From contig JADGCM010000002.1 in assembly GCA_015228995.1 (NCBI GenBank), positions 1 to 39,222 on the forward strand: a stretch of 39,222 bases of DNA. The letters are read 5' to 3'. The first letter of the stretch is position 1, and each line of letters begins with the position of its first letter. Position numbers and translations under genes: made by a program. The notes beneath the pieces were generated by a model that saw nothing but the letters and a program-made list of their open reading frames with translations, was not told where the DNA came from and made no database searches. Of this stretch, positions 1,969 to 35,400 are shown piece after piece. The DNA is from Magnetococcales bacterium (GTDB lineage Bacteria; Pseudomonadota; Magnetococcia; Magnetococcales; JADGCH01).

Positions 1969-2952
1969 ATGAATAACGATATATTGCTTATTTCTGCCCT
2001 TGATAGTTATAATTCTGGTCAATATAAGGATACGATCAGCAAGTGCCGGTTAGCGATCCAAAATCAAGAGAGGGCTGATGCTTGGTGCTTGACTGGCATG
2101 GCGCTGCGTAAATTGGGGCGTTCACACGATGCCGTTAACGCTTATCGCCTAGCATTGTTGATCGATCCCGATTATACAAGCGCATCCAGTAATTTGATAA
2201 ATTTACAAAATGATCTGTTAAATGGTATCCGTGCTGACGCTTATTCGATCCATGTGGCTATGTTGGCCCTCTACGAGAAAGAATCGGGCCTTGTCGTGCA
2301 AACGGGTGTTTTTAAGGGACTGAAATTCCATAAAGGCTTTTTCCATGGAAAATTGCAGATGCTGTTTGGGACGTACGAATCACAGCTAACGCAATGGATG
2401 CACGATGTCGTCAAGAGGGCTTATTCAACCATCATCAACGTTGGTTGTGGTGAAGGACTTTATGCCGTTGGCTTGGCCAAGACGATTCCTAACAGTCGGG
2501 TTTTTGCCTTTGATACCCATGAGGGTGCTAGGGCAAATTGCCAGTGGTTGTCGGATACCAATGGCACCACTGATCGTGTAACGGTGCTGGGGGAGTGTTC
2601 TCCGCAGCAACTGGAGGAGTTGCTCAGTAAACAGGATGCGGATGCGTTGGTGCTGATCGATTGTGAGGGGTGTGAATACGAATTACTCGATCCGGCACTT
2701 GTGCCATCCCTTGCCAATTGTGATATTTTGGTGGAATGCCACGATAGCTCTTTTCAGCCACCGAAACCAATTGCAAAGACTCTTGAAGAGCGGTTTTTCA
2801 GCACACATAGTGTTATTCGCACTGATTCTGGCCCTCGGGATCCTTGTATGGTACCCTTTTTGGATAATTTTCCTGAATTGGCTTGGTGGTTGTCCATTAA
2901 CGAGAGTCGTGATCATTTTCAGACTTGGTTTTATTTTACTAAACGACAATAA
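1969..2952 (+). CDS. TPR-containing class I SAM-dependent methyltransferase
   Basis: 327 aa. The N-terminus has TPR-like helices (CLTGMALRKLGRSHDAVNAYRLALLIDPDY). The C-terminus has the SAM-binding motif I INVGCGEGLYAVGLA, then VFAFDTHE and an acidic LIDCEG block. Confidence 0.6.
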   Translation: MNNDILLISALDSYNSGQYKDTISKCRLAIQNQERADAWCLTGMALRKLGRSHDAVNAYRLALLIDPDYTSASSNLINLQNDLLNGIRADAYSIHVAMLALYEKESGLVVQTGVFKGLKFHKGFFHGKLQMLFGTYESQLTQWMHDVVKRAYSTIINVGCGEGLYAVGLAKTIPNSRVFAFDTHEGARANCQWLSDTNGTTDRVTVLGECSPQQLEELLSKQDADALVLIDCEGCEYELLDPALVPSLANCDILVECHDSSFQPPKPIAKTLEERFFSTHSVIRTDSGPRDPCMVPFLDNFPELAWWLSINESRDHFQTWFYFTKRQ

Positions 2953-5642: not shown

Positions 5643-9966
<4,324 letters not shown>

Positions 9967-17186: not shown

Positions 17187-17280
17187 AGGGTAAGGGGTGT
17201 GAACTTTCCCTCACCCCCCAACCCCCTCTCCCACAAGGGGAGAGGGGGAGTATGATGGCAGGGTAGGGGTGTTAAAATTT
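17187..17280. repeat. GC-rich REP/MITE-like element, copy E3, with flanking GGGTRAGGGGTGTKAA modules
   Basis: Core 17208-17248: CCCTCACCCCCC-AA-CCCCCTCTCCC-ACAA-GGGGAGAGGGGG. It is flanked by GGGTAAGGGGTGTGAACTTT (17187-17206) and GGGTAGGGGTGTTAAAATTT (17261-17280). Confidence 0.8.
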
Positions 17281-18208
17281 ATAAAGCGTATTGCGGTCCG
17301 CCATCGTCGATCGAGGAGATCTGAATACGCATATAATTAAATAGGTAGCCCAGAGCGGCAAAATGGAGGAAATAGCTGTTATGGAACTCGTTTTCGACCA
17401 ATTCCATGAACAGTGACCAGGGAAAATTATCCGGAATGGTGTCCTCTTTGGTTTTGGCTAATAATTTGGGGCAATGGACTGCGAAGTACTCAAATAAGTG
17501 CCAATTGAACCGAGGGTTGAGTTCATACAACAACCCCCGCTGCATCAGCAGCAGTGATAAAGGGTGCTGTTCGTAACATTTGGTCCGTTGTGGAAAGTGG
17601 TAGGTATCTTCCAACAGCTCACGGTGGCGTTGAAGCTGTGGCGATAATACCAGCACTCCGGTGCTGATGGTACGGCTTTCATCCGTGTCCATATTCTCAA
17701 GATGACGATAGAGAAAATTATTAAAACGCTTAAAATTGTGGGCTACCTCTTCCAGGGTCTGCATCGGGGCGAGGTCGTCTGGTTTGGTGCTGGCAGTGGT
17801 ACGGTCCAGGCGAATATGCTTTTCAGCCAGTGACATCTGATCATAATTGATCACCGCGCCGACCTGTTGCTGGGGTACCCCATAACATATATGGGGGGAA
17901 TGGGGGTTGATGATGATGTCGGCGTCGACCCAGATAATGCGTTGGTAGAGCTGGGACCAAGGCAGGCTGAGGATAAGACACTTCTGCCAAGCCGGGGAGC
18001 GACTCTGAGCCATGAGCGATCCGTCCAGCGGCTGTTGGATAAGGACTATATCCAGATCGTGCTTCTCGGCATAGCGGACCCAACTGGCTTTGGCCGCTCC
18101 TTCCCAGCTGTAACGGAAGGAATCGCCGATAACCAGGGTGACGATCGCCTCCTTGGCTTGAGGCAATAGCGTGTCATGAGGAGAAGAAATCAGGTGCAGT
18201 GTACTCAT
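17279..18208 (-). CDS. Putative GT-A fold glycosyltransferase (DxD motif), family unresolved
   Basis: ATG at 18208 (the listed TTG at 18217 is less likely). The block AWQKCLILSLPW..YQRIIWVDADIIINPH resembles nucleotide-diphospho-sugar transferases of the GT8/GT34 type. Its first 14 nt form the left repeat of the inserted element. Confidence 0.45.
   Translation of the reverse strand: MSTLHLISSPHDTLLPQAKEAIVTLVIGDSFRYSWEGAAKASWVRYAEKHDLDIVLIQQPLDGSLMAQSRSPAWQKCLILSLPWSQLYQRIIWVDADIIINPHSPHICYGVPQQQVGAVINYDQMSLAEKHIRLDRTTASTKPDDLAPMQTLEEVAHNFKRFNNFLYRHLENMDTDESRTISTGVLVLSPQLQRHRELLEDTYHFPQRTKCYEQHPLSLLLMQRGLLYELNPRFNWHLFEYFAVHCPKLLAKTKEDTIPDNFPWSLFMELVENEFHNSYFLHFAALGYLFNYMRIQISSIDDGGPQYAL
18195..18208. 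repeat. attL core (direct repeat)
   Basis: TGCAGTGTACTCAT. Its reverse complement ATGAGTACACTGCA is the first 14 nt of CDS 17279..18208. Confidence 0.7.
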
Positions 18209-18395
18209 AAGAAACAACCCTTATTATTTATTTATATCATCATAAAACCATGTTTTAACAAAAAAACATGTTAAAAACGAAAGTAACGACATGCAGCGTA
18301 TTGACAGTCTTAGAAGCAAGAAGCATTCCAAAACTTGAACAATACCGCGAACAATAAAAAAGATTCTTTAGGCTACTTTTTTACTATAAAAATTG

Positions 18396-18424
18396 TTGAC
18401 AAATAACTGGTATAATGCTATGAT
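18396..18424 (+). promoter_or_regulatory. Candidate sigma70 promoter of the integrase gene
   Basis: TTGACA (18396-18401), 17 nt, TATGAT (18419-18424). An extended -10, TGGTATAAT (18408-18416), is nested inside. It lies ~40 nt upstream of the int ATG. Confidence 0.5.
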
Positions 18425-18463
18425 TCGCCATCGTTTAATCAGTAATAGCACAAGGGTTACAGC

Positions 18464-19690
18464 ATGACTATAAACATCTTGACAGTGGCTAAAATCAACC
18501 ATACCAAACCTATCGACAAAATACAACATCTGTTAGATGGGGAAGGGCTGTTGTTAGAAATAAGAACAACGGGCGGGAAATACTGGCGATTTAGGTATAC
18601 CTATAATGGCAAGGCCAATTGGCTATCATTGGGGAAATATCCTTATATCACCCTAGCCGAAGCAAGACAGAAACGAATTGAGTATAAAACCATGCTCGCT
18701 CATGGGATCAACCCAAGCGATGAACGCAAAAAAGCGAAGGCAATTCAACAAAAAGCCATTAAAGCCACTACATTTGAGGATGTTGCAACAGAATGGTACA
18801 AAAAGAAAAGCACAACATGGTCAGTATCACACAGAAACGGAGTAAGCTTAAAACTAAAAAACCACATCTTGCCAATGATCGGAACAATCCCAATCGATCA
18901 AATAACCAAACAACAGATGATCGAATGCTTACGTAAGATTGAAGAAAAGGGAGTAGTTGAAACCGCTAAAAGGTCAAATGTTATTTGTAATCAAGTGTTT
19001 GAATACGCAATTATAACCAACAGAGCGACGATCAACCCAACAATCAACCTTGCACAGATTTTAACAGCCACAGAAGTTAAACACCATGCAGCCATTACAG
19101 AGCCCGACAAACTAGGGAAGCTGTTGGCTGATATTGAGGCAATGGAAGGAACAAGGGAGGTTGTCAAAGTCGCTACCCAGTTGCTACCTATGCTGTTATG
19201 CCGACCAGGGGAGTTATGCAGGGCGGAATGGTCCGAAATTGACTTTAACAAGGCAACCTGGACAATATCCGGCCATAAGATGAAAACAAAACAAGATCAT
19301 TGCGTGCCATTATCGAACCAAGCCTTGCGGCTATTCCGTAAGGCGTACGCTATCACCGGACAAGGTCAATGGGTTTTCCCAATGAAGCAAAAAACAACAG
19401 CTTGTATATGGGCAAATGAAATCAACGCCGCCCTTCGTTCGATAGGCTACGAATCAGACACCATCACCGGCCATGGGTTCCGAGCAACCGCCCGCACAAT
19501 GCTTGAGGAACAATTACACTATCCGTATGACCTGATTGAGCATCAATTAGCCCATAAGGTCAATGATCCACTAGGTAGGGCTTATAACCGCACAACCAAG
19601 CTACCAGAAAGAAAGGAAATGATACAAAAATGGGCTGATTACCTGGACCAGCTTACGATTGATGCGCAAAATCGAATCAACAAGCAATAG
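18464..19690 (+). CDS. int: Tyrosine recombinase, P4-type integrase with N-terminal arm-binding (DUF4102-like) domain
   Basis: 408 aa. LLLEIRTTGGKYWRFRYTYNGKANWLSLGKYPYITLAEARQKR, C-terminal HGFRATARTML...HQLAH...AYNRT. Confidence 0.9.
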   Translation: MTINILTVAKINHTKPIDKIQHLLDGEGLLLEIRTTGGKYWRFRYTYNGKANWLSLGKYPYITLAEARQKRIEYKTMLAHGINPSDERKKAKAIQQKAIKATTFEDVATEWYKKKSTTWSVSHRNGVSLKLKNHILPMIGTIPIDQITKQQMIECLRKIEEKGVVETAKRSNVICNQVFEYAIITNRATINPTINLAQILTATEVKHHAAITEPDKLGKLLADIEAMEGTREVVKVATQLLPMLLCRPGELCRAEWSEIDFNKATWTISGHKMKTKQDHCVPLSNQALRLFRKAYAITGQGQWVFPMKQKTTACIWANEINAALRSIGYESDTITGHGFRATARTMLEEQLHYPYDLIEHQLAHKVNDPLGRAYNRTTKLPERKEMIQKWADYLDQLTIDAQNRINKQ

Positions 19691-19703
19691 CTTATTGACA
19701 ACA

Positions 19704-19828
19704 GGCGATTGCTCACCGCTTGCGCGTCGCAATCAATCTTAAATCAGCCACACATCACGGGCGGGCTTTTGGCTACACTGCCAGCCGCCCTTATAAGGCG
19801 GGGGCGAAGTATTCCCCCGCCCCACCAT
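19704..19828 (+). repeat. Modular repeat, copy A (module 1 + two hairpins)
   Basis: GGCGATTGCTCACCGCTTGCGCGTCGCAATC (19704-19734), hairpin 19759-19790, hairpin GGCGGGGG-9nt-CCCCCGCC (19797-19821), then CCCACCAT. Homologous to 21768-21891. Confidence 0.8.
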
Positions 19829-19865
19829 AAAAACGGCAATTGAAAAGACAAGGGGTAAAAAACAA

Positions 19866-21212
19866 ATGACAGAACCAAACAATACCAACAATATCCTACC
19901 AATTGACAAAAACAAAAGAAACACAAAGACAACAACGCCAGGATTATCCTTATCATCTAAGGCGTCAATATCAAATCTTTTCAATTATTTAAGAGACAAT
20001 GAATATAAAAACAAATACAATATAAGATTCAATCTATTTATTGATCAAGCAACCATTACAACAGATGATAAACCAATGGATGATTACGACCTAAAAGTTA
20101 TAATGAAGGACATCCACGAAAAATGGACATATAGAGCAACCTTGCCAAGTATAGGAATTGCAGTGGAATTATACGCACATGAGAAAGAATATCATCCAGT
20201 AAAAACCTACTTGGAAAGTCTCCAATGGGATGGAAAAGAACGACTTAAAAGCCTGTTTATAGACTATTGCGGATCGAATTTAGCATGGCCATACGAACCA
20301 TCAAAAGAAGATGAAGAATTAGACAAAATAATTGCAACAAGATGGTTTATATCAGCAGTTGCTAGAATATATCAGCCAGGTTGCAAGGCTGATTATATGC
20401 TGATATTAGAAGGAAAACAACGAACAGGCAAAACTAGTTTCTTTGAGACTATCGGCAAACAATGGTACACAACCACCCAAACTGAAAAGATAAATGATGT
20501 TGATTTTATAAGGTCACTACATACCGGCTGGATCATCGAAATGCCAGAATTAAGCGGCTTTTCTAAGGTTGACATCAGAACACTTAAAAGCGTTATAACA
20601 ACAAATAAAGACAATGTCAGGCCATTATACGACAAATTCTATAGAAACATGAAAAGACAATGTGTATTAGCCGGAACAACAAACGAAGCACAATACCTTA
20701 AAGATGCAACAGGGGGAACAAGGTTCTGGCCAGTAAAAATATGGAAAGTAAATATAGATAAATTGAAACAAGACATTGACCAAATATGGGCAGAAGCAAC
20801 AGCAAGATACAAAAACAACGAGCAATGGTGGCCTACCGATAAGGAAATGGAATTACTACAAAAAAGACAAGAAACAAGATATGAAATAGACGTATGGGAA
20901 GACTTTATATTAAGATATATCACACAATACCCAACTTTAGAAAAAATCGATGATAAGCCTTTTGCACCTGCTAAAGTATTCTGGCATAATAGAGGCGTGC
21001 CATTACATTTTATCGCAACAACAGAACTCCTTAAAACTGCTTTTGATATTGGCATCGGGCAACAGGGAGGAGTAGAGCAAAAAAGGGTTGCTGCCATTAT
21101 GTCAAAAATCGGATGGATTCCTGGTAGAGGCAAAACACCTGAAAGCGGAAGAAGAGTTAGGGGGTACGAGCCAGAAGGAAGGATTCGCGACAAGAGAGAA
21201 GACAACGACTAA
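19866..21212 (+). CDS. VapE-family (virulence-associated protein E / D5-like P-loop NTPase) replication-type protein
   Basis: 448 aa. HPVKTYLESLQWDGKERL, Walker A LILEGKQRTGKTSFFETIG, WIIEMPEL, CVLAGTTNEAQYLKDATGGTRFWPV. AAGGGG lies upstream of the ATG. Confidence 0.85.
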   Translation: MTEPNNTNNILPIDKNKRNTKTTTPGLSLSSKASISNLFNYLRDNEYKNKYNIRFNLFIDQATITTDDKPMDDYDLKVIMKDIHEKWTYRATLPSIGIAVELYAHEKEYHPVKTYLESLQWDGKERLKSLFIDYCGSNLAWPYEPSKEDEELDKIIATRWFISAVARIYQPGCKADYMLILEGKQRTGKTSFFETIGKQWYTTTQTEKINDVDFIRSLHTGWIIEMPELSGFSKVDIRTLKSVITTNKDNVRPLYDKFYRNMKRQCVLAGTTNEAQYLKDATGGTRFWPVKIWKVNIDKLKQDIDQIWAEATARYKNNEQWWPTDKEMELLQKRQETRYEIDVWEDFILRYITQYPTLEKIDDKPFAPAKVFWHNRGVPLHFIATTELLKTAFDIGIGQQGGVEQKRVAAIMSKIGWIPGRGKTPESGRRVRGYEPEGRIRDKREDND

Positions 21213-21213
21213 A

Positions 21214-21239
21214 AAACCACGTTAAGCCATACGTGGTTT
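21214..21239 (+). terminator. Stem-loop directly after the vapE stop
   Basis: AAACCACGT-TAAGCCAT-ACGTGGTTT: 9-bp stem with A and T tracts on the two sides. It starts 2 nt after the TAA. Confidence 0.55.
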
Positions 21240-21387
21240 CTAAATTACTACGTAATTTAGAACACTACATCTTCTTATATTCTATAAGAAAGATGTAGTG
21301 GGTACGTGTCCAAAGTAAAAATGGTGCCCAGATGGCCTGATTAAAAAAAAACATCAATAAAAACAGCAATATAATAACAACAAACGG

Positions 21388-21505
21388 GGACATCAAGTGG
21401 ACACTACTGCAAATAAAACATAAAAGATGATTACAAAAAAATAATTACAAAACAACATATTACAAATAACATTCAGATAACATTTGGTGGACATCAAGTG
21501 GACAC
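21388..21505 (+). repeat. Pair of perfect 17-bp direct repeats flanking an A-rich spacer (candidate iterons)
   Basis: GGACATCAAGTGGACAC at 21388-21404 and 21489-21505. The 84 nt between them are almost pure A/T. Confidence 0.7.
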
Positions 21506-21511
21506 CAACTG

Positions 21512-21593
21512 GGCGATTGTTCACCGCTTGCGCGTCACAACTGCCCCACCATGAGCCAACAAGGGAAGAAAGCTCGCCATTGTTTCGGTATCA
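21512..21593 (+). repeat. Modular repeat, copy B (module 1 fused directly to module 3)
   Basis: GGCGATTGTTCACCGCTTGCGCGTCACAAC, then GCCCCACCATGAGCCAACAAGGGAAGAAAGCTCGCCATTGT. It lacks the hairpin modules present in copies A and C. Confidence 0.8.
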
Positions 21594-21767
21594 AGCCAAG
21601 CAGGCAACCAACCTACACACATTCCAATAAAAAGCAATATCGCATACAACCGCATAAAAAGCAGTTTTAAGCGCGACTAGATCAAGTGGCTAGGTTGCTA
21701 TTGACAACAAAGCTATCGTCGTTAATAGTGGCGTTATAGGAGGTTGTAGGCGGTATTGTGGACTATG

Positions 21768-21925
21768 GGCGATTGCTCACCGCTTGCGCGTCACAATCTT
21801 CCTACACCATAAATCAGCAACAAAGCATCGGTGGCTTGCAGTTGGCTAGCCACCCATCAGGCGGGGGTAGAGAATTCCCCCGCCCCACCATGAGCCAACA
21901 AGGGAAGAAATCTCGCAATTGTCGG
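21768..21925 (+). repeat. Modular repeat, copy C (module 1 + hairpins + module 3)
   Basis: GGCGATTGCTCACCGCTTGCGCGTCACAATC (21768-21798), hairpin 21830-21854, hairpin 21860-21884, then CCCACCATGAGCCAACAAGGGAAGAAATCTCGCAATTGT. Confidence 0.8.
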
Positions 21926-22227
21926 CATCATAAAAGATCGAATCTTGACCTTATTGTTGAATTGGCTACCACATAACATGTTGAAAGTATTACGTAATAT
22001 CTGTGGAAATAGTTATTGATTTTTAATCTGATTGCTGCGTTTTTATCTGTTTTGTGTGTCGATACACTACTAACCGCAAAACAACCAACAAAAGGAACGG
22101 GGGAAGATTACTTCAGGTTGTCGTATCAAGAGGCTAGCCAACTGTACGAAATTCGTACAGTTAAAAACAAACCATCAAACAACGGTTTAACCGTTCTTAC
22201 CCAATCCGGCTATCAAGTGACCATCAA

Positions 22228-22256
22228 CAATTGCTCACCGCTTGCGCGTCACAATC
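22228..22256 (+). repeat. Modular repeat, copy D (module 1 only)
   Basis: CAATTGCTCACCGCTTGCGCGTCACAATC. It is followed at 22305-22332 by ACAACCGC...GTTTTAAGCGCG, a module also present at 21647-21674. Confidence 0.75.
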
Positions 22257-22445
22257 ACCCTGGTTTGTAAGGAACAACCAAAACAACGAAATCGTTGTTT
22301 TAACCACAACCGCTTGTAACACGTTTTAAGCGCGTTTTGACGCTATCAATACCCAACTAGCAGCCAACAGCCTACAATCGATTTTAGAGGCCTTATAGAA
22401 GGCTACAAATCATTTCCCTGTAACTATCAACCAAAGGAAGCCATA

Positions 22446-22609
22446 ATGAAAGTCACAATCTCAAATAGCCTACAAGGAAGATCATCGAATTGGTCGAGGA
22501 TATAACCAACGAACGCTTGCCAATCGAGGAAGCCATTGCAGAAGTCTACAACCTAGCAGCAACAAGCAACAACCTGGACGACAACGACGATATGGATTTT
22601 GACCTGTAG
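22446..22609 (+). pseudogene. Small ORF apparently split by a frameshift (acidic ~54-aa product if repaired)
   Basis: AAGGAAG lies 6 nt upstream of ATG 22446, but this frame stops after 19 codons (TAA 22503-22505). The overlapping frame, open 22469-22609, reads ...KIIELVEDITNERLPIEEAIAEVYNLAATSNNLDDNDDMDFDL* and has no start codon of its own apart from a TTG. Confidence 0.3.
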
Positions 22610-22627
22610 CACAACCGACAATCAGGG

Positions 22628-22643
22628 GGGCGGGCAACCGCCC
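22628..22643 (+). terminator. GC stem with GCAA tetraloop after the split small ORF
   Basis: GGGCGG-GCAA-CCGCCC followed by TTCCTTATC. It lies 19 nt after the TAG at 22607-22609. The U tract is weak. Confidence 0.35.
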
Positions 22644-22978
22644 TTCCTTATCAATCCCGCCCGACAACAAGCCACAACAAACCATGCCCATGGCTCAACA
22701 GCAGAAAAGACAAATAAACGATAAAAAGCAGCATCTTATCAAAACAAGGGCAAAAGGTGTGTACATTTGGTGGATGTATCATCCACCATAAATAAGAAAT
22801 TATCTATTTATAAACAACGACTTTTAGCTGTTATGCTGCTTTCGATGTACGTTTTGCTGTACAGTATCCGATAAATCTACCCTTACCGATAAGGTAAGAA
22901 TTGAGGACAAAGCAAAGATGGTCAGCAATTGTAACAAGACACAAGAGAAACCAGCAACAAAAAAACAACAAAAAGGTA

Positions 22979-23007
22979 TTGACAACAAGCACAGTATTCT
23001 GTACAAT
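22979..23007 (+). promoter_or_regulatory. Near-consensus sigma70 promoter pointing out of the right end of the element
   Basis: TTGACA (22979-22984), exactly 17 nt, TACAAT (23002-23007). The -35 lies within ATTGACAACA, a 10-mer also present at 19694-19703 and 21700-21709. Confidence 0.5.
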
Positions 23008-23121
23008 TCAGACAAGGAAGAAATCAATGGATATAATAACGACGAACAAGAAACAGACTAACACTTTATAACTTGCCAATAATTTACAAATAAAAACAAT
23101 TACTTATAACGCTACACTAGA

Positions 23122-23135
23122 TGCAGTGTACTCAT
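23122..23135. repeat. attR core (direct repeat)
   Basis: TGCAGTGTACTCAT, identical to 18195-18208. On the minus strand ATGAGTACACTGCA continues only TCTAGTGTAG (stop). Confidence 0.7.
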
Positions 23136-23171
23136 GGATCAATCCCGTGACCAAAAGAAGCGGCCTCTTTA

Positions 23172-23217
23172 CCCTCTCCCCTTGTGGGAGAGGGCAGGGT
23201 GAGGGGTGTTAAAGTTT
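23172..23217. repeat. GC-rich REP/MITE-like element, copy E4
   Basis: CCCTCTCCCC-TTGT-GGGAGAGGG-CA-GGGTGAGGGGTGTTAAAGTTT. It ends 2 nt from the stop codon of CDS 23220..24233, so it is a likely terminator for that operon. Confidence 0.8.
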
Positions 23218-23219
23218 CA

Positions 23220-24233
23220 TTATACACGGATACGCCGGTTTATCCAACGGTGGATGCGGTTGATGATCCGTTTCTGTTGTTGTTCCGCCAAACTAGCAAA
23301 CAAGGGGAGGGCCAATGCCCGTTGCAAGAACTGCTGCATACCAGGCAAATGGCTATGTTGGGGAACGCGGTACCAGAGAGGCAGATCGGTGCTAATACCA
23401 GCCCGAGACAAAAATTGTTGCAACGCCAGCCGGTCCGCAGCATCGTGCCAGGACAACACAAACCGCAACCAGACGCGTGGCTGCTCGGTTGTCGGTAACG
23501 GCAGTTCAAACAATCCGTATGGGCGTAAACTCTCCAGATAACGCTGGGCCAGTTCAGCACGGCGCCGGGCCAGTAAAGGCCATTGTCGCAGACGGGAGAG
23601 GCCCATGGCACAGGAAAGGGTATTGGCAATGGCGGGCCGCAGGCAACGAATCTGCTGCATAAGGGCGTCGTCGTGGCCCAACAACACACAAGCCGCCCCA
23701 GCGGTGATAGCTTGGTTGCCATCGCAGCCAATGATTTGGAAGTCAGCTTGGCCACAACCATCAATCGGTGTCGGTATCGCCGAGCATATCTCAATGGTGG
23801 CATGGCAGAGCGAAGGGGGAGGGAGGGGCGCGATCTGGCCAAAGCTATGGCAACGCAGCCAAGCGCGTGGCTTGCGGTCGTAAACCTCCGGCAAAACCAC
23901 CGGGCTGATGCCAGTAGTTGGGTCAATATCAAGCCAACCCAGCCGCAACCAGAGGGCCTCGCAGGCTTGACGCCAGGGTGGTTCCAACAGGCCATCTGCC
24001 GCTAGCCAGTCACCCGCTTGCCAGCCCAGTGCTGTGGCCAAAGCCGCCATCAGCTGGTCAGCACTGGCAAAAACCACTGCCGGGCGTTGCCAGCAGTGCT
24101 GCCACATCTCTTCCCAACGTTGCAACAGCGACTCATCTTGCCACGCAGAGGTAGCGATGGCAGCCAGGACCGCCGCCTCATCCGCTTGGGTGAGATCGGA
24201 CGCCGTTAGCGGGATGAAATTGACAACAGACAC
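23220..24233 (-). CDS. DegT/DnrJ/EryC1/StrS-fold aminotransferase-like protein that appears to lack the catalytic lysine
   Basis: 337 aa. The GTG start directly abuts the gltX stop. By-eye alignment to ArnB-type enzymes holds along the whole length: FIPLTASDLTQADEAAVLAAIATSAW, AVVFASADQLMAALATALGWQAGDWL, LSRLRQWPLLARRRAELAQRYLESL, ALPLFASL. At the SFHxxK position the sequence is GCDGNQAIT (Gln codon 23712-23714). Confidence 0.6.
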   Translation of the reverse strand: MSVVNFIPLTASDLTQADEAAVLAAIATSAWQDESLLQRWEEMWQHCWQRPAVVFASADQLMAALATALGWQAGDWLAADGLLEPPWRQACEALWLRLGWLDIDPTTGISPVVLPEVYDRKPRAWLRCHSFGQIAPLPPPSLCHATIEICSAIPTPIDGCGQADFQIIGCDGNQAITAGAACVLLGHDDALMQQIRCLRPAIANTLSCAMGLSRLRQWPLLARRRAELAQRYLESLRPYGLFELPLPTTEQPRVWLRFVLSWHDAADRLALQQFLSRAGISTDLPLWYRVPQHSHLPGMQQFLQRALALPLFASLAEQQQKRIINRIHRWINRRIRV

Positions 24234-26454: not shown

Positions 26455-29400
26455 TTAGCTAAAGGCCAGCCCTGCGGTAAACACACTCTCTACCGGTGTT
26501 ATGCCGCTATAACTCTGCAATGTATACGACAGACGCCCGGCAGCAATGGTAATATCACTCAAAGCGCTAGAGGCTTTGCTGACGTTACCAGCGGCGTCGG
26601 CCTGAATGGCGCGCAGGTTGGTATGTCTGCCGATGGCCAGCGCTGCGACATCGATGCTCCATTTGCCGTTGGTCGCCACTCTATCACTGCCAACGAGCAG
26701 GTCAACACTCTCGGGATCGAATCGGCCATTATTATCGACATCTTTGAACAAGGTGAGCACCGCCGCCGCTTCACCATTGCCACTGATGATATGGGTGCTG
26801 CCGCTGAATTTTAGACCGTTCGGGGCTGCTGGGGCCACACTGTCGATACTGACCCGTAACTGCTCGGCGAGCGGACTGATATTACCCGCCACATCGCTTT
26901 GTTTCGCCGTCAGGGTATGGTTGCCATTGCCGATTTTGGTCAGTGTCAGCCGCCAGTTGCCCTCGCCATCGACGTTGGCCGTGCCCAGGGTGGCTTTGTT
27001 TTCCAGCAAGGTGACACTGGCCCCGGGCTCCCCGCGTCCCAATACTACCAGCCCGGCGGTTTTGTTACTGATGTAACTGTCGGCCACCTCCTGATCGGCA
27101 ATCATCAGGTCGGTGGGGGCGGCGGGGGCCTCGCCATCGATAATCAGGCTGAAGGGGATAGATGGCGAACTCTCGTTACCGCGACTGTCGGTTTGGGAGG
27201 CGGTGATGCTGTAACTGCCGCCCGATAGGCTCAGATCGGTATTCCACAAGCCCCTGCTGACCGCTGCGGTGGCGAAATGATCGCCATCGATAAACAGGGT
27301 CACGAATTTTGCTCCGGCAGCACTACCGGACAGGGTCAGGCCGGAGCTTTTGCTGGTGATATTGTCTATCTTGGAGGGGCCGGTATCGTCGTCATTGGCC
27401 AGATCAAAGCCACCGGGGGTCTGCACCACGATGGCTAACGCCGCCGAAACCTTGCTGGAGCTGCCGGCAACGTTGGTTTGGATCGCCTTGATGGCATGGC
27501 TGCCGCCAAACAGGTTGACACTCGTCGCCCAGGTAGCGCTCTCAATGCTGGTGGTGGCCAACAGCTCACCGCTGTTGATCTTGCTATCTTTGTTGCTGTC
27601 GTCAAACAGCAGCAACGTCATGCCATCCTCACCACTGCCGATAATGGTGATGTCGGCCCCACTGGCCAAAATGGGGGTAGTGGAGAAATTGCCATCCACC
27701 TGCAATCCGGTGGGTGTGGTCGGCACGCTGGTGTCGATAGTAACGGTCAGCGGCTCCGAATCGCCACTGGTACCAGTGTCAGTGGTTTGTTGGGCGTTGA
27801 AAGAATGCGCCCCAGCGGCGAGGCTGGCCAGTTTGACGCTCCACTTGCCGGCAGCGTTAGCGGTAGTGCTGCCGATGGCACTCCCTTCGGTCAACAGCGT
27901 TACTTTAGCACCTGCTACCGAGTCGCCAGTAAAGGTCAAGCCTTTGCTCTTGTTGGTGATGCCATCACCGACCACGCCGCTGTCATCGCCCGCCAGCAGG
28001 GACAAGGCGGTCGGTGGTGGTGGCGGCACCGACTCGATGATCTCCAGTTCCAGCGCCGTCGAGGCCGGGCTGAGATTACCGGCCAAGTCTGACTGCACGG
28101 CCCGGATGGCATGTTTGCCCACTGCCAATTCAGCAATATCAGCCGTCCATTGGCCACTACTGGCCACCGTCGCCGTCGCCAAAGCACCATCGATGCCAGT
28201 CGCTTCACCCTCAAATAGATAAACCCGCAACCCCTTTTCACCACTACCGCTGAAAGTCAAGTCACTGGTGCGGGTGGTGATATTGTCACTTTTGTTGCTA
28301 CCGCTATCATCTTCAGCGGCTAAATCAAGTTTGGTCGGGGTGGCGGGGGCGACGGTGTCAATGGTAATCATCAACGCTGCCGAGGCTTTGCTGACATTAC
28401 CAGCGACGTCGCTTTGGCTGGCAACGACGGTATGGGTACCATCGGCTAGCGTTGCCAGCACGCCGCTCCAATTGCCCTCTTCATCGACCACAATGGCCCC
28501 GCTGGCGCGTATCTCGCCACTATCGAGCTTGCTGTTTTTGTTCTTATCAACAAACAGGATCACCGCGCTACCAGCCTCGCCCCGGCCGCTGATGGCCAGA
28601 TTCTCGGTAACGTTAGTAATATTATCACCATCTGACGGTCCGCCATCGCTGCTGGCAGCCAAGTCCAAACCAGTTGGAGCCGGGGGAGCGCTGCTATCAA
28701 CGTCGATCACCAACACGCTTGAGAGATCGCTATTGACCCCATCAATAACCTGCTGGGCGGTAAACGCGTGGCTGCCCTGGCTAAGCCCTGTGACCGACAC
28801 CCCCCAATTACCCGTCGCACCCACCGTGGCGCTACCCTTAGAGCCATCGCCATCGAACAGCAGCACCTTGGCCCCTCTTTCACCGCTACCGGTGATGGTC
28901 AATTTGCTCTTATTGGTGAGGCCATCGCCAACAACGCCGCTGTCATCGCTGGCCAGCAGGGCCAAGTCGGTGGGGGTGGGCGTTGTCGTTCCGGAGCCAA
29001 TGGTAACCGGCAGCGTTGTGGAGACTTTACTGACATTACCAGCCAAGTCGCTTTGGGTCGCCTTAAAATTATATCTACCGACCTCTAGCGCAACGCTGCT
29101 GCTCCAATTGCCTGTTTCATCAACGATAATACTCTCGCCAAACACTTCGCCATCTTTGAACAGAGTGAGGCTAGCCCCGGCTTCGCCTTTGCCGCTGACC
29201 TCGTTGCTGCTGCTGCTATATCTCAAGCCGCTCGGGGCTGCCGGGGCACTGCTATCGACAATCACGTTCAATTCTGGCGACGCTTCACTCCACTCGCCAT
29301 CGACTAGCTGTTTCGCTGTCAGGGTATGGGCTCCTTGGCTCAAGCCAGAGAGCTTAACGCTCCAATCCCCAGCTGCGGCAACGGTGGCCGTGCCTTTGCT

Positions 29401-32400
29401 GCTGCTGCCGTCAAATAGGGCCACTTTAGCCCCGCTTTCACCGCTACCGGTTACGGTTAGGCTGGTTTTGTTGGTGACGCCATCACCGATAAACCCGCTG
29501 TCATCGCTCGGCAGCAGGGCTAGGTCGGTGGGGCGGGGCGTTATCGTTCCGGAGCCAATGGTGACCGGCAGCGTTACCAAGGATTTACTGACATTACCGG
29601 CTAAGTCGCTTTGGATCGCTTTGAAGCTATATTTGCCGTCAGGGAGATCGATGCCGACGGACCAAATACCCACTTCATTGACGGTAAGTCCCTCTTCTGA
29701 GACCACTTCACCCTCATCGGCCCGGCCGTTAGCATTGCTATCGTTGAACAGGGTCAGGATGGCCCAAGATTCACCTCTACCGCTGACTTCGTTGGTGCTG
29801 CTGCTATATCTTAAGTTGCTCGGGGCTGCCGGAGCGGTGGTGTCGATGCTGACGCTCAGTGCTGGTGATGCTTCGCTCCATTCGCCGTCAATCAGCTGTT
29901 TAGCGGTTAGGGTATGGGCTCCTTGGCTCAAGCCAGAGAGCTTAATGCTCCAATCCCCAGCTGCGGTGATGGTTGCGGTGCCTTTGCTGCTACTGCCGTC
30001 GAATAGGGCCACTTTAGCCCCACTTTCACCACTACCTGTCACGGTTAAACTGCTCTTATTGGTGACGCCATCGCCAACCACACCGCTATCATCGCTCGGC
30101 AGCAAGGCCAAATTAGTGGGAGTTGATAGCGGCGAATAAACAAAGTTCAAGTTGACCGTAGCGGCGTTGCTACTCCACTTGCTACCATCGAAAGCCTGCC
30201 ATTGAAAGCTGGGGCTGCTGTCGGCACTGGCCACCGGCACCAATTTCAAGTTGCCAAGATTGCCGGCCGTAATCTCCTGGTCGAGCTTGACGGCACTGCT
30301 GCTCAGTTGCAATGTCCCACTGTCGGGTAAGCCGGTGATTTTGATTTTAGTCAGGCCACTGCCCTCAATATCGCTATACTGATCGGTAAAGTCGCTGCTG
30401 GTGAAGGCGAGGGCACTGTTGCTGAGGCCGTTTTTGCTGAAGCCAGTGACCGTCGGTGCGTCATTGACCGGATTGACAGCGATGGTCACCGTGGCGGCGC
30501 TATTGGCGTAGACCGTGCCATCATAACCATTCCAGCCGAAGCTATCGCTACCGCTCCAGTTGCTGTTGGGGGCATAACTCAAACTACCAAGGTTGGCAGC
30601 GACGATCTCCTGATTAAGCGTCACCGCTGCACCGCTCAACCGTAAAGTGCCGTTGCTGGGCAAGCTGGTAATTTTAATTTTATTTAGCGTATTGCTGTCC
30701 GGGTCGCTGAATTTATCGCTAAAGTTGGTAGTGGTGAAGGTGATGGTGCTGTCTTCATCGCCATTTTTACTTAAGTTGCTGACGGTCGGGGCTTTGTTGG
30801 TTGATTGCACAACAACGGTCAATGCACTTGATGCCGCGCTCATATTCCCTATCACATCGGTCTGTATAGCCCTGATGGCATGCGTTCCCGCTACCAGGCT
30901 GATATCGGCACTCCACGTTGCTGCTATCAGGCTGGTGGTGGCCAATGCCTCGTCGCTATCGATTGTACTATTGTCGTTGGCATCGTCGAACAGCACCAGC
31001 TTATTGCCAGCCATACCACCACTGCCGCTGATGGTCAGGGCGCTGGTTTGGAAAGTGATGTTGTCGGAATTAGAGATGTCGTTGTCGTCAGCCGCCGCCA
31101 GATCAAGAGCCAACGGAATAGGAATGGTTGTTGTGCTCACAATAAAAATATCCGTTGTACCATTGGTATCGTCGGAGACCAAATTACTAGCACTGCTCGC
31201 AAACGCCACAAAGCGGCCATCACCAGAGATGGAGAGTTCGTGGGAGTGACCATTACTCTGAAAACCATTGCTAGCGGTACTGACACGGCTGATTTTGTAG
31301 AGGCTACGATCATAGACAAAGATATCAGCATAGCCATTACTATCTCCGGATACCAGACCAGGGTCCCATATATAATCCCCACTCGCAAACGCCACGAAGC
31401 GGCCATCGTCAGAAATAGAGGGATTGTAGGAGCCGCCAAAGCTTTGAGCGCCTTTGCTGCTGATGTTGACACGGCTGGTGGTGCTGGTGGCACGATCATA
31501 GACAAATATATCACTGCCGAAATTGGTGTCACCGGGAACCAAATTGCTGGCATGACTACTAAATGCCACGAAGCGACCATCGGCTGAGATAGAAGGGGAG
31601 GATCCATGAGTCCGAGAATCTTCTCCGCTGTAAGTCCCAGAGTGGCCATTACCCTGAGTGCCATCACTGGCAACGCTGACACGGACGGTGATACCGGTGC
31701 TGCGATCGGAGACAAACGCATCTACCGCACCATTGGTATCTCCAGAGACCAGATCGCTGGCATCACTATAAAAAGCCACCAAGCGGCCATCGGCCGACAT
31801 GGAAGGGTCGCGGGGGTAGCCATCGCTGACCAGTCTGGTTTGCTTGAGGGAGAGATCATAAACAAATACATCAGGCGCACCATTGCTGTCCCCATAGACT
31901 AAATTGTTGGCATCACTCGTAAACGCCACAAACAAACCATCTGTCGACAGGATGGGGTTATAAGAACTCCCATTGCTCTGTGTGCCATCACTAGCAACGC
32001 TGACGCGCTGGATAGGAAATTGCGCTGATTGGACACCACCGGTGGCCACCACAATCGTCAACGCCGTTGAGGCAACGCTGCCATTTCCCGCCATATCGGT
32101 CTGCACTGCCTTGATGGCATGGGACCCCGCAGCTAACGCAATATCGGCACTCCACGTTGCACCGGTGATGCTAGTGGTGGCCAGGGCCTCGCCACTATCG
32201 ATGATGCCATCGTTATTCCTATCATCAAACAGCACCAGTGTCGTCCCGACTTCACCGTCGCTGCCGCTGATGGTGAGGGCGCTGGTTTGGGTGGTAACGT
32301 TGTCGGAGTTGGAAGTGCCGCTGTCGTCTGCGGTGGCGAGGTCGAGGCTAGCCGGAGCAACGGGCGCGGTATTATCCAGCGTAAACACCAACGCTGTCGA

Positions 32401-35400
32401 GGAGACGCTGCTGTTGCCAGCCGTGTCAATCTGACGCACGTAGACGGTGTTGCTGCCCGTTGTGGCTGTGAACGAGCCGCTCCAATTGCTACCGTTGGTG
32501 CTGTACTGCACCGTAGCACTGCTTTCGGTACCAGTGACCGTGACGACACCGGTACGGCTAATCTTGTCGTTAGCACTGCTACCGGTATCGTTGGTGAGGG
32601 CCACTGTTGGAGTGGCCGGGGCAGTGGTGTCTACTGTCACCGTCAACGCCGCTGACACCGCGCTCATATTTCCCGCCGCATTGCGCTGAATGGCCCTGAT
32701 GGTATGTGTCCCCGCCGCTAAATTAATATCGGCACTCCAAGCTGCTGCTGTCAGGCTGGTGGTGACCAGGGCTTCGCCGTTGTCAATCACACTATCGTTG
32801 TTTTTGTCGTTGAACAACACCAGCTTGTTGCCAGACACACCACCACTGCCGCTAATAGTCAAAGCATTGCTGTTTTTGGTGATGTTGTCGAAATTGTCAC
32901 CGCCGCTATCATCAACGTCGGCAAGGTCAAGACTGGTGGGAGTTGTTGGTAGAGCGATACCAGCATAGAGCACACTCTCGACATTTAGCGCTGTGATCGG
33001 ACTACTGCCCAGCACAACCACCGTATCGGCACCGTTTGAGCCGATAATATTCTCGACGTTAGTGACGTAAATCACGCCACCGGTCAGCAATGCCACGGTA
33101 TCCGCACCAGTCGACCCGAGTAATGAATCGACTTCAGACATCCGCACAACTCCGGCGGTGAGCAGCGTTACCGTATCAGTGGCACCATTGGCACTGAACA
33201 AGGTATCAATGTTCGAAACCGCTATGACACTGCTAGTCAGCAGTGTCATGGTGTCGGCAGAGTAAGTGGTGCCAATCAATGAATTGATACCAGAAGTCAT
33301 CACTGCACTACTAGTCAGTAAGGTCACCGTGTCAGTGGCGTTGCTGACACTGATGAGTGAGTCAACACCCGATACCACTGTCTTGCTGCTAGTCAGCAGC
33401 GTCACGGTCTCGTTGGCACTGCTGCCGATGATCGAGTCAACTTGGGAGACAGTCAATCTGCCACCGGTCAGCATCACTACGGTATCGGTAGCACCAGCAA
33501 CACTCATCAACGACTCAATATTAGAAATTATTACGTGGTGACCAGTCAGCAGAGCCACCGTATCGGTAACACCAGCATTGCTGATCAGGGTATCGATACT
33601 TGATACCACCGACTTGCCGCTGCTCAGCAGTGTCACCGTCTCGATACCAGAGGCTCCCAGTACTGTTTCAACGCCAGATATATTCATGGCACCGCTGCCA
33701 TTATTCATAACGATCACGGTGTCAGTTCCATCCGTGCCCAGCACCGATTCGCCTGGAGTAAACGCCATGCTGGCGTTGAGGGACACCTGGAAGGCGTCGG
33801 CAACGACTATCTGGAGAGAAGCAGCACTGGCCGCGCTCACATTCCCCGCCGCATCGGTCTGGATGGCCTTGATGGCGTGCGTGCCCGCCGTCAAGCTGAT
33901 ATCAGCACTCCATGCCGCCGCTGTCAGGTTGGTAATAGCCAGGGCCTCGCCACTGTCGATGACGCCGTCGTTGTCTTTATCGTCAAATAGCACCAAGGAA
34001 GCCCCAACTTCACCCGTACCGCTGATGGTCAGGGCGCTGGTTTGGCTGGTGATGTTGTCGGAGTTGGAAGCACCGGTGTCGTCGGTGGCGGCTAAATCTA
34101 GGAAGTTATTTACTGTGGTGATGGTAGCGTTAAAGCCTGTGGCATCGCCATTTCCCCAACCTGCGTCATTTACCCCAAACAAAAGCACATCGCCAACTTG
34201 AAGGTCCAAAGATTGTTCAAATGTGAATGTACCCCTTGGCCCTACGTGTTGTTGTACCAATTGCGTTGAGTTGCTAAATATCAAAGCATCTACGCCGCCA
34301 GTGTAACTACCACCATCCAATGCGAAGATACTAGAGACATTGTAAGTGGCCGTGGCAGGAGCTACCCACTTGATGATGACATCGCTACGAGTACTGTTCC
34401 CGGCTGGATGGACAACAAGAAGACCGCCAGGGGTGTTGTTTGCGACATTAGTTGTCCATTCTGAGAAAAATCCGCCCGATCCAGCTATTATTTTTTTTGC
34501 TACCGCTGGTAACCCAGAATCAACCCATCCCTGACTACTCGACCAGTATATATTGGCTGAGTCGCTGTTGTAATTACCAAGAGGTAAAAAGCTGTTTCCT
34601 GTTTTACCCTCACCATAACGCCATATTCCGGTATTAGAACTGGTAGTTGAAAAATCGGCCAAGGCATTATAGGTGGAGGCTGCCCCTAATTGTGACGGTG
34701 CCGTCGTATCTACCGTCACACTCAACGCCGTCGACGCGGTACTGCTGTTGCCGGCCACGTCGGTCTGGATGGCCTTGATGGCGTGCGTGCCGTTGGCTAG
34801 GCTGATATCGGTACTCCACGCTGCTGCTGTCAGTCTGGTGGTGACCAGGGCCTCGCTACCGTCGATGACGCCGTCGTTGTCTTTGTCGTTGAACAGCACC
34901 AAGGAAGCCCCAACTTCACCCGTACCACTGATGGTCAGGGCGCTGGTTTGGCTGGTGATGTTGTCGGAGTTGGAGGTGCCGGTGTCGTCAGCGGCGGCGA
35001 GGTCGAGGTTGGTCGGTTGAGGAGGTGCAAACCCGCCAGATGTTGTACTCAGCAGCACTGAGACGCTATTAGCGTTAACATTAGCACTGACGATATCCAA
35101 GAGACCATCGCTGTTGAAATCAGCGCTGGTGACGGAGGCAGGGCCACTACCTACGGCATAGTTAACGGCAGTGGCGAAACCGCCGGAGGCTTGACCGAGC
35201 AGCACCGAGACGTCACTACTGCCCCAATTAGCACTAATAATATCCAAGAATCCATCACCGTTGATATCAGCACTGGTAACTCCGCAAGGATTACCACCGA
35301 CGGCATAGTTAACGGCTTGGGCGAAGCCACCGGAAGCTTGACCGAGCAGCACTGAAACGCCACCACCCCAATTGGCACTAACAATATCCAAGTATCCATC

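Follow-up and report, generated by a model that had tools for sequence, protein, structure and literature searches.

Repeated boxes and hairpins as possible cis-regulatory cassettes in a two-gene integrative island of a Magnetococcales bacterium

In a 39-kb stretch of DNA from a Magnetococcales bacterium (the window; all coordinates are window positions), we analysed an integrative island of 4,927 bp whose only recognisable genes encode a tyrosine integrase (int) and a VapE-type P-loop helicase (vapE). The gene-poor half of this island is built from short repeats: a box of 25–31 nt, here called module 1, that occurs four times in one orientation, two hairpins (hp1 and hp2) that follow it in two full units, and further modules shared between units. 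These repeats are selectively conserved and non-coding, and they match neither the repeat organisation of P4 nor the arrays found beside related vapE genes. Our leading explanation, a tentative one, is that they are modular cis-regulatory cassettes placed ahead of the expression units of a satellite-like integrative island.

The island occupies positions 18209–23135 and is bounded by a 14-bp direct repeat, the attachment (att) core (Table 1). Its guanine-plus-cytosine (GC) content is 34–48%, against 55–60% in the surrounding genome, and its + strand is A-rich. The insertion point is the 5' end (start codon) of a glycosyltransferase gene. In a related Magnetococcales metagenome-assembled genome, JADGCH01, the site is empty: at locus L149 (6957–7000) a DegT-like gene and a glycosyltransferase gene lie 44 bp apart with no island between them, and the uninterrupted junction holds one att-like copy, ATGCAGTGTGCCCAT. 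The glycosyltransferase of that locus is 85% identical to the window copy at the protein level and 77% at the DNA level. With att sites in direct repeat, a gene for an integrase and a relative whose site is empty, the stretch qualifies as an integrative mobile island. Both genes and both att cores are intact, and PHROG helicase/primase families align to VapE only via their C-terminal parts. No tRNA or tmRNA was found.

Module 1 recurs far beyond chance. All four copies match the 25-nt core ATTGYTCACCGCTTGCGCGTCRCAA with no mismatch (at 19708, 21516, 21772 and 22230, all on the + strand), while 0.00 matches were expected and none appeared in 100 dinucleotide shuffles. The original prediction, made from the sequence of the window, had described a ~30-nt module present four times in + orientation, and these four exact matches bear it out. 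Its start positions for copies A, B and C (19704, 21512 and 21768) hold as well; copy D had been placed at 22228, where identity in fact begins at 22230 and the register calls for 22226. Read in register, module 1 is 31 nt long, and copy D begins with AACA where A, B and C have GGCG. A scan of the island tolerating up to 14 mismatches revealed no further degenerate copies. Core identity amounts to 24 of 25 positions in copies A, C and D and 23 of 25 in B. When the four copies were aligned, 24 of 33 columns were invariant, loops and asymmetric centre included, a pattern that suggests a factor recognising the sequence itself. Together the outer arms make up a partial dyad, GATTG-N18-CAATC.

All copies are direct, spaced 256–1808 bp apart, intergenic and in gene orientation. 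Unit A lies between int and vapE, from 14 nt after the int stop to 38 nt before the vapE ATG. Only A, B and C carry the GGCG extension, and these are also the copies that have GCCCCACCAT further downstream. A helix between GGGCG and (C/U)GCCC is possible, and for B the folding prediction contains it directly; in A and C, pairing of the extension with GCCCCACCAT would compete with hp2.

Known kinds of box were compared with module 1 and rejected. By eye, none of the sigma-54, extracytoplasmic function (ECF) sigma factor, LexA, CtrA, DnaA, parS and integron attC readings fits, and the promoter scan used to test for sigma-70 promoters lists no site within the module. An integrase arm site was discarded too: the copies are 900–1600 bp away from the att core, and no word of this kind is shared by the arms near attP. 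For comparison, the arm repeats of P4 lie mostly within ~170 bp of its core, with one at ~460 bp (P4 record).

Selective conservation is seen in units A and C, ~125-nt direct repeats that lie 2,064 bp apart and are conserved in blocks only. In hp2, GGCGGGGG-N9-CCCCCGCC (19797–19821 and 21860–21884), 16 of 16 stem positions but just five of nine loop positions are the same, so the predicted pattern of identical stems and varying loops is real. In hp1 a C-G pair of one unit is a T-A pair in the other (GGCGG(G)CT/AGCCGCC versus GGTGGCT/AGCCACC); we recovered this double change in the register in which it had first been reported. The hp1 loops differ in sequence and in length (15 versus 11 nt). 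Altogether, 28 of 31 stem positions are identical between A and C, compared with 29 of 62 non-stem positions, counted as all others from module 1 to the end of hp2 (Fisher P=3.5e-5, on a hand-made structural alignment and post hoc, the structure having come from these two sequences themselves). The three stem differences comprise one compensated pair and one bulge, and the two units differ by indels of 6, 1, 2, 4, 8 and 2 nt. Since the stems are kept while the loops are free, the conservation of hp1 and hp2 favours a folded single strand, either RNA or single-stranded DNA (ssDNA), over a duplex binding site. Identity confined to stems and short blocks also speaks against a duplication in neutral decay, and against a coding role. 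Both units fold better than shuffled sequences (z=−2.85 for A and −2.67 for C), with z between −2.4 and −2.9 on either strand.

Neither hairpin qualifies as an intrinsic terminator: there is no U-tract, and the sequences that follow are CUUAUAA/CAUCA and CCACCAU. The terminator scan found no + strand intrinsic terminator-like site in the island. As a separate observation, in hp1 of unit C the segment comprising loop and 3' arm (21839–21851) shows perfect 13-nt complementarity to 22132–22144, 280 nt downstream, a site that overlaps a perfect hairpin with an 11-bp stem (22140–22162). This could be an RNA-RNA target or chance, with ~0.03 expected by an estimate, inflated by the GGCTAGCC palindrome.

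Additional modules tie the units into a mosaic. Units B and C share a third module, as had been proposed: 39 of 41 positions are identical (21543–21583 versus 21882–21922), the shared block begins GCCCCACCATGAGCC, and both units lead straight into the conserved GCCCCACCATG. Between B and D, ACAACCGC (21646–21653 and 22306–22313) and GTTTTAAGCGCG (21664–21675 and 22323–22334) are shared; here the predicted sharing stands, with coordinates corrected by 1–2 nt. A degenerate fifth unit, E, contains the hairpin GGGCGG-GCAA-CCGCCC (22628–22643), whose stem is the same as that of hp1 in unit A. ATCAAGTGR, a word related to the 17-mers of the candidate origin (Table 1), was counted four times on the island's + strand and five times in the window, where 0.7 were expected.

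Promoter-like elements accompany the units. The −35-type box TATTGACAAC, a 10-mer, has three exact copies (at 19693, at 21699 and as the box of a site at 22977–23007), found in the island only and on the + strand only. At unit A, module 1 begins 4 nt past the box, in the expected position of the −10 hexamer. Unit C instead lies ~30 nt downstream of the predicted start of the TTGACA-17-AATAGT site, with module 1 at about +32. The promoter scan places its promoter-like sites, at 18396, 21701 and 22979, apart from module 1. The site at 22977–23007 is a near-consensus promoter (TATTGACAAC box, TTGACA-17-TACAAT) that faces outwards at a distance of 115 bp from attR; in an excised, circular form of the island, transcription from it would cross attP in the direction of int. 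A 28-nt inverted repeat, 79% complementary (21635–21662/21731–21758), flanks the promoter-like site at 21701, and its 3' arm overlaps the predicted transcript start.

The DNA that carries these repeats shows no sign of coding. The remaining 1.9 kb gave no Pfam match in the three forward frames, and its individual small open reading frames (ORFs) gave no Pfam or PHROG match; four ORFs were counted, compared with 5.1±1.8 in shuffles, and neither their number nor their length is greater than in shuffles. A pseudogene reading of the gene-poor half was dropped on the absence of Pfam matches in the forward frames. The micro-ORFs beginning MSQQGKK were rejected as genes: both differences between B and C in 13 shared codons are non-synonymous, there is no ORF excess, and family matches are lacking. 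The similarity of B and C runs on past an apparent 2-nt indel, which is seen by eye and is not resolved by automatic alignment. Translated, module 1 contains 'RLLTACASQ', and this lipoprotein reading failed as well, with no signal-peptide h-region and a frame not kept among the copies. A 20-mer of the module gave six matches in metagenomes, all reading LLTACAS in one frame; in the five with upstream sequence visible, LLTACAS ends a lipoprotein-typical hydrophobic leader. These are chance matches, mostly to lipoprotein-type signal peptides, and they also account for the lipobox-like translation of module 1.

Two small ORFs were noted in this region. One of 84 codons (22016–22270), with a TTG start and a hydrophobic N-terminus, forms the single T-rich patch in this half of the island and terminates within copy D of module 1. 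Family searches gave no match for it and a representative search only repetitive long proteins; it could encode a small membrane protein or have no meaning. The other has a good ribosome-binding site, AAAGGAAG, an ATG at 22447 and a stop after 19 codons, and the neighbouring frame continues as an acidic 39-residue ORF (22490–22609). Together they may represent a frameshifted small gene (22447–22609).

Table 1. Coordinates of the island features, and repeat sets beside vapE in four related loci (positions in the respective locus).
Feature	Position	Strand	Remarks
attL copy of the 14-bp att core, TGCAGTGTACTCAT	18195–18208		Overlaps first codons of the minus-strand glycosyltransferase gene; direct reading
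Tyrosine integrase (int), arm-type DNA-binding domain	18464–19690	+	Pfam PF13356, PF22022, PF00589
Module 1 copy A	19704–19734	+	14 nt past int stop, 4 nt past TATTGACAAC box, 162 nt before vapE ATG
hp1 of unit A	19759–19790	+	
hp2 of unit A (19797–19821) and CCACCAT box	19797–19828	+	ATG now ATA
VapE-type P-loop helicase (vapE), without primase domain	19866–21212	+	PF05272, E=4.5e-72
Candidate origin, two exact 17-mers GGACATCAAGTGGACAC (21388–21404, 21489–21505)	21388–21505	+	2 found versus 0.13 expected
Module 1 copy B	21512–21542	+	Carries TGTTCACC; starts 6 nt after second 17-mer
Module 3 copy B	21543–21583	+	Starts GCCCCACCATGAGCCAACAAGGGAAGAAA...; start-associated box
B copy of ACAACCGC...GTTTTAAGCGCG module	21646–21675	+	
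Promoter-like site, TATTGACAAC box, TTGACA-17-AATAGT	21699–21729	+	~40 nt upstream of module 1 copy C; consensus match only
Module 1 copy C	21768–21798	+	
hp1 (21830–21854) and hp2 (21860–21884) of unit C	21830–21884	+	
Module 3 copy C	21882–21922	+	
Module 1 copy D	22226–22256	+	Same as copy C from 22230; without GGCG extension
Unit D tail	22280–22334	+	Perfect 10-bp-stem hairpin AAAACAACGA/TCGTTGTTTT (22280–22301) and ACAACCGC...GTTTTAAGCGCG (22306–22334)
Degenerate fifth unit E	~22610–22700	+	AATCAG, hairpin, CCCGCCCGACAACAAGCCA (22656–22674), ATG codons at 22684 and 22690
attR copy of the 14-bp att core	23122–23135		Direct reading, empty-site comparison and GC drop
L153, GGTCCCAGT	5779–6023		2+3 forward, 3+2 reverse
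L154, TGGTTCCAGT	2436–2609		Six forward, three reverse
L155, GACGGATGA-type words	3469–3589		
L152, GGTGAC-type words	4350–4436		

How far the units are structured was judged from pairing. The original prediction had named a family of structured RNAs as one of its two readings. Stem conservation, one compensatory pair and the folding of A and C speak for it, significant covariation and an Rfam match are missing, and we regard the structured-nucleic-acid interpretation as partly supported. Module 1 can form a hairpin of its own, GATTGY...RCAATC with an inner CGC-N4-GCG stem. Two of its three variable positions are the partners of the sixth pair, the only pair of the stem that varies: C-G in A, U-A in B and C.A in C and D. 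On the minus strand the C.A becomes U.G, 97% of the cells pair, and all four copies (4/4) adopt the same minimum-energy fold with GCAA as inner loop. On the plus strand 89% of the cells pair, only copy A folds convincingly, and z is ~0 for B, C and D. Two-sided changes number one in hp1 and one in the module-1 stem, among only 2–4 paralogous copies.

The indicators of strand conflict, and there are just two informative G.U-type changes. For the plus strand speak the orientation of the genes, the A/C-rich skew of the non-coding half, the promoter-like sites, a G.U pair within GGGCG/UGCCC, the closing helix of module 1 in B, and the GCAA loop of hairpin E.

From these observations we propose the following cassette. 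A full copy, as in A and C, would have three parts: module 1 as a 25–31-nt box read sequence-specifically by a trans-acting factor, hp1 and hp2 acting in folded single-stranded form, most likely within 5' leaders of transcripts from the + strand, and the start-associated box GCCCCACCAT(G). Units B, D and E would be shortened or reshuffled cassettes. A + strand RNA of the gene-poor half would be A/C-rich, G-poor and largely untranslated, with no canonical intrinsic terminator found in it. The cassettes would, on such an RNA, set transcript survival or read-through into vapE and the downstream units, and might act via stability, processing, anti-termination or start-site masking. Module 1 would serve as the handle for a factor of the host, a helper phage or the island. 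The cassettes would not be the origin, which more probably lies at 21388–21505.

Several results weigh against this proposal. The distance of module 1 to promoter-like sites and start codons is not fixed, and Pfam and PHROG scans showed no island regulator able to recognise the box. On the + strand the hairpin of module 1 is weak, and it pairs better on the − strand; the assumption of a + strand RNA may be wrong for module 1. Covariation among the 2–4 paralogous copies is not significant in shuffle controls. Rfam 15 gave no match at gathering thresholds across the whole window, and at E<=5 across the island it returned only a spurious snoRNA. Finally, since its loops do not vary among the copies, module 1 would be as suitable for a factor that recognises a specific DNA sequence as for one that recognises RNA.

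The last point leads to a close rival, which we consider somewhat doubtful: module 1 would be a duplex-DNA site, either an orientation-dependent operator or 'stoperator' for a helper-prophage or host repressor, or a promoter for a helper polymerase or sigma factor, and the hairpins would be accessory structures of the leader. At least 23 of 25 core positions are identical in every copy, loops and asymmetric centre included, which fits recognition by a protein or polymerase better than a hairpin alone does; the partial dyad and the orientation shared with transcription point the same way. The box of A, at the −10 region, would be in an operator position and that of C, at ~+32, in a roadblock position. 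T7-type polymerase promoters are 23 bp long, about the size of the module 1 block. There is also a precedent in the one-orientation 13-bp stoperators of Cluster A mycobacteriophages (mentioned in PMC3203893). However, Pfam and PHROG scans found no repressor, sigma factor or polymerase gene in the island, module 1 contains no sigma-70, sigma-54 or ECF-like hexamers, and its placement with respect to promoter-like sites and start codons is not consistent from copy to copy. Nor does any viral contig contain the 16-nt core more than once or the 25-nt module, so that no candidate helper uses module 1 as a promoter.

That last result belongs to a wider search for homologous elements, in which the scans of sequence collections used exact words and would miss diverged relatives. 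The 25-nt module had no match in the genome and viral collections, and hp2 with its box, as well as module 3, had none in the exact-word scans. The 16-nt core gave single chance matches only, in GC-rich genomes and viral contigs (the best, L137, on a contig of 69% GC), and the 17-mer of the candidate origin a single chance match, in what looks like a coding region. When the island was compared by BLASTN with phage and plasmid collections, only a piece of an integrase gene was returned. The exact island proteins occur on no other contig and both protein clusters are singletons; the best relatives reach 40% identity for VapE and 48–49% for Int. A search for related loci with VapE found none, and the contexts of six relatives were ordinary prophages or other mobile elements without these modules.

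A bolder form of the cassette proposal seems improbable to us. In it the gene-poor half would be the RNA-only control region of a satellite smaller than any characterised, with three-hairpin leaders (module 1, hp1 and hp2) replacing protein regulators. The leaders might be put-like, factor-independent anti-terminators that carry RNA polymerase through a Rho-prone, untranslated A/C-rich transcript; alternatively, they might be processed small RNAs of the P4 CI type that gate helicase expression, with module 1 as a helper-phage switch. Direct support is limited to the 13-nt complementarity and the absence of a regulator gene.

The other reading in the original prediction was an origin- or crr-like replication region for VapE, by analogy with P4. 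What it states of P4 is accurate: in the P4 record (NC_001609) the type-1 repeat consensus is TGTTCACC, and crr consists of two 120-bp direct repeats. It is also correct that TGTTCACC occurs exactly in copy B (21518–21525) and that the other three copies have TGCTCACC. The record annotates 16 'ori type 1 repeats', TGTTCACC or one-off variants, in three clusters: five octamers in each 120-bp crr repeat and six in ori, ~10 bp apart and in both orientations. The island resembles P4 in being small and integrative, in encoding a P4-type (arm-binding) integrase and a single replication helicase, in its ~120-nt direct repeats (units A and C) and in the word TG(T/C)TCACC. Its organisation is different. 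Each module holds one octamer-like word, always direct and exact in one of four copies; the conserved unit measures 25–31 nt against 8 in P4, and units A and C are ~2 kb apart, whereas the crr repeats of P4 are separated by 60 bp. The degenerate octamer TG(T/C)TCACC has six further occurrences in the window outside the island.

The replication protein differs likewise. VapE has no primase domain, and BLASTP showed no significant similarity to P4 alpha, the only alignment being in the P-loop region (E=0.07). It is the C-terminal part of P4 alpha that binds the iterons, and to this part BLASTP detected no match in VapE. With neither octamer clusters nor an alpha-related replication protein, the P4-type origin interpretation of module 1 is not supported.

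Relatives of VapE offer another comparison. In four of them (34–39% identity), repeats of ~6–12 bp form two inverted sets at the vapE stop codon, within the 3' end of vapE or in the DNA directly after it; they are tandem in three of the four, with a spacing of 9–12 bp. The words of L153 and L154 are nearly the same (GGTCCCAGT and GGTTCCAGT). Two inverted sets of short repeats at the 3' end of a helicase gene are the classical origin arrangement of Staphylococcus aureus pathogenicity islands (SaPIs), and the iteron origins of SaPIs and phage-inducible chromosomal islands (PICIs) sit just 3' of VapE or primase-helicase genes. The inverted short repeat sets are probably the origins of this helicase clade. 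Module 1, at 30 nt, single, dispersed and direct, does not have this form. In L154 and L155 a primase-type gene lies directly upstream of vapE, while the island has no primase.

A better-placed candidate is the pair of 17-mers at 21388–21505. Within each 17-mer there are two G(G/T)GGACA words, 11 bp apart; between the two 17-mers lies an 84-bp AT-rich stretch. The region begins 175 bp past the vapE stop, in the same position relative to vapE as the arrays of the relatives. It resembles the origins of VapE relatives, SaPIs and PICIs in having a repeat pair around an AT-rich stretch less than 300 bp from the vapE stop, with module 1 copy B adjoining. The agreement is partial, as the 17-mer sets are direct and those of the relatives inverted. 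By this likeness 21388–21505 is more probably the origin, and a better candidate than module 1. Two perfect palindromes with 11-bp arms each (21238–21262 and 21263–21300) precede the AT-rich region, and just before them, after vapE, there is a terminator-like hairpin (21214–21239).

Module 1 copies might still act as dispersed VapE iterons, as P4 alpha binds TGTTCACC in ori and crr, a reading that we find quite improbable. It has in its favour the direct, conserved TG(T/C)TCACC word in each copy, the verified P4 facts, the position of copy B against the AT-rich candidate origin and that of copy A upstream of vapE, where an autoregulatory site is conceivable; moreover, the cis-required replication region of P4 can be kilobases from ori. 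Yet each module has a single word where P4 has clusters of five to six in both orientations, one of four is exact, the 8-mer occurs six times outside the island, VapE is unlike P4 alpha outside the P-loop, the arrays of the relatives differ, and 21388–21505 is better placed.

Equally concerned with replication, and very improbable in our view, is an ssDNA role, in which hairpins and boxes would be priming signals of the single-strand initiation (ssi) type or packaging signals for helper-driven replication or encapsidation, used by an element that has a helicase and neither a primase nor a terminase. Kept stems with free loops fit folded ssDNA as well as RNA, the island has no primase, and all copies are on one strand; the complementary-strand origins of the G4 type resemble three stem-loops in ~125 nt. 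However, no similarity to a known ssi, pac or cos site was found and the copies spread over 2.5 kb, not over one entry site; our analyses do not separate ssDNA from RNA.

Least probable of all is that the modules have no function and are left over from old segmental duplications or from decayed genes in a degenerating island, possibly including MSQQGKK short genes: the mosaic with its truncated units (B, D and E), the lost ATG of unit A and the orphan status of the island fit such remains, but identity is confined to 25–41-nt blocks with near-random flanks, decay would not spare exactly stems and box, tracts of 25–41 nt do not exceed the length that homologous gene conversion normally requires, the MSQQGKK differences are non-synonymous with no ORF excess or family matches, and int, vapE and the att cores are intact.

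Outside the island, a host element resembling repetitive extragenic palindromes (REP-like), a hairpin of CCCTCTCCCCTTGTGGGAGAGGG then GGGTGAGGGG, occupies two intergenic sites, 23169–23210 and 17212–17246; a 42-nt stretch of it is 100% identical in L149 (3211–3252). The minus-strand gene beside attR (23220–24233) matches DegT/DnrJ/EryC1 aminotransferases over its C-terminal third only (residues 205–327), and its counterpart in L149 has 67% DNA identity. A giant ORF of 4,241 codons (minus strand, 26455–39180) occupies the right third of the window.

Among described elements, the PICMIs (minimalist chromosomal islands that phages can induce) of Vibrionaceae are comparable in layout. Their published description gives PICMI115 as 6.1 kb, with int-alpA-primase and large non-coding regions that contain small doubtful ORFs, and a SatelliteFinder model that asks for an integrase, AlpA and a DUF3987/DUF5906 primase next to fis (PMC10803314). 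Measured against it, our island is alike in being very small (4.9 kb), with an integrase, a DUF5906/VapE-type protein, direct-repeat ends and large non-coding regions. It differs in having no AlpA or helix-turn-helix match in the small + strand ORFs or in the forward frames of the ORF-poor half, in not lying next to fis and in its Magnetococcales host; passages of that account found by keyword mention no conserved repeat cassettes for the PICMI non-coding regions (PMC10803314). The island appears to work like a minimalist island, and it is not a PICMI as defined.

For the cassettes the closest documented analogues, with functions only partly known, appear to be two kinds of phage repeats. The start-associated sequences (SAS) of Cluster K mycobacteriophages are one-orientation boxes before start codons, about half of them with an upstream variable-spacer inverted repeat (extended SAS, ESAS); at ~15 per genome, they contain the ribosome-binding site, are confined to the non-structural part of the genome and are absent from the host (PMC3203893). 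Our units likewise place short asymmetric one-orientation boxes, here GCCCCACCATG, directly before start codons. Here, however, 2–3 copies stand before doubtful micro-ORFs and have no Shine-Dalgarno sequence, whereas SAS stand before real genes; and the ESAS arms did not support RNA pairing, unlike hp1 and hp2.

The second kind are the promoter early stem-loop (PeSL) cassettes of T4-type phages, which combine a terminator with an early sigma-70 promoter (PMC2839356, PMC4122927). They share with units A–E and the three TATTGACAAC boxes the repetition of stem-loop and promoter motifs in variable small-ORF regions and the modular reshuffling, and differ in that our hairpins have no U-tracts and module 1 has no promoter consensus.

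RNA control systems of mobile elements include the P4 CI RNA with seqA and seqC, the c4 RNAs of P1 and P7 and the put RNAs of HK022. The island has in common with them paired stem-loop units in leaders ahead of a replication gene, the lack of a protein repressor and the one 13-nt complementarity. It departs from them in having no Rfam match even at E<=5, in a scan covering such models of these RNAs as Rfam contains, and repeats that are direct and not mutually complementary; nor were targets of the terminator kind identified.

The analysis removes a tempting analogy with P4 and relocates the probable origin to 21388–21505. It also reveals that vapE genes of this helicase clade repeatedly have short repeats in inverted sets next to them, and it supplies probes of 30 and 125 nt for work on binding and transcripts. 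Were the cassettes inert remains, the finding would be ordinary, and its interest comes mainly from the small size of the island and its scarcity of regulators. We know of no satellite-helper system described in Magnetococcales. If the cassettes are regulatory, minimalist satellite-like islands would extend to this order, and a mobile element of two genes would organise its expression by repeated nucleic-acid signals instead of regulator proteins.

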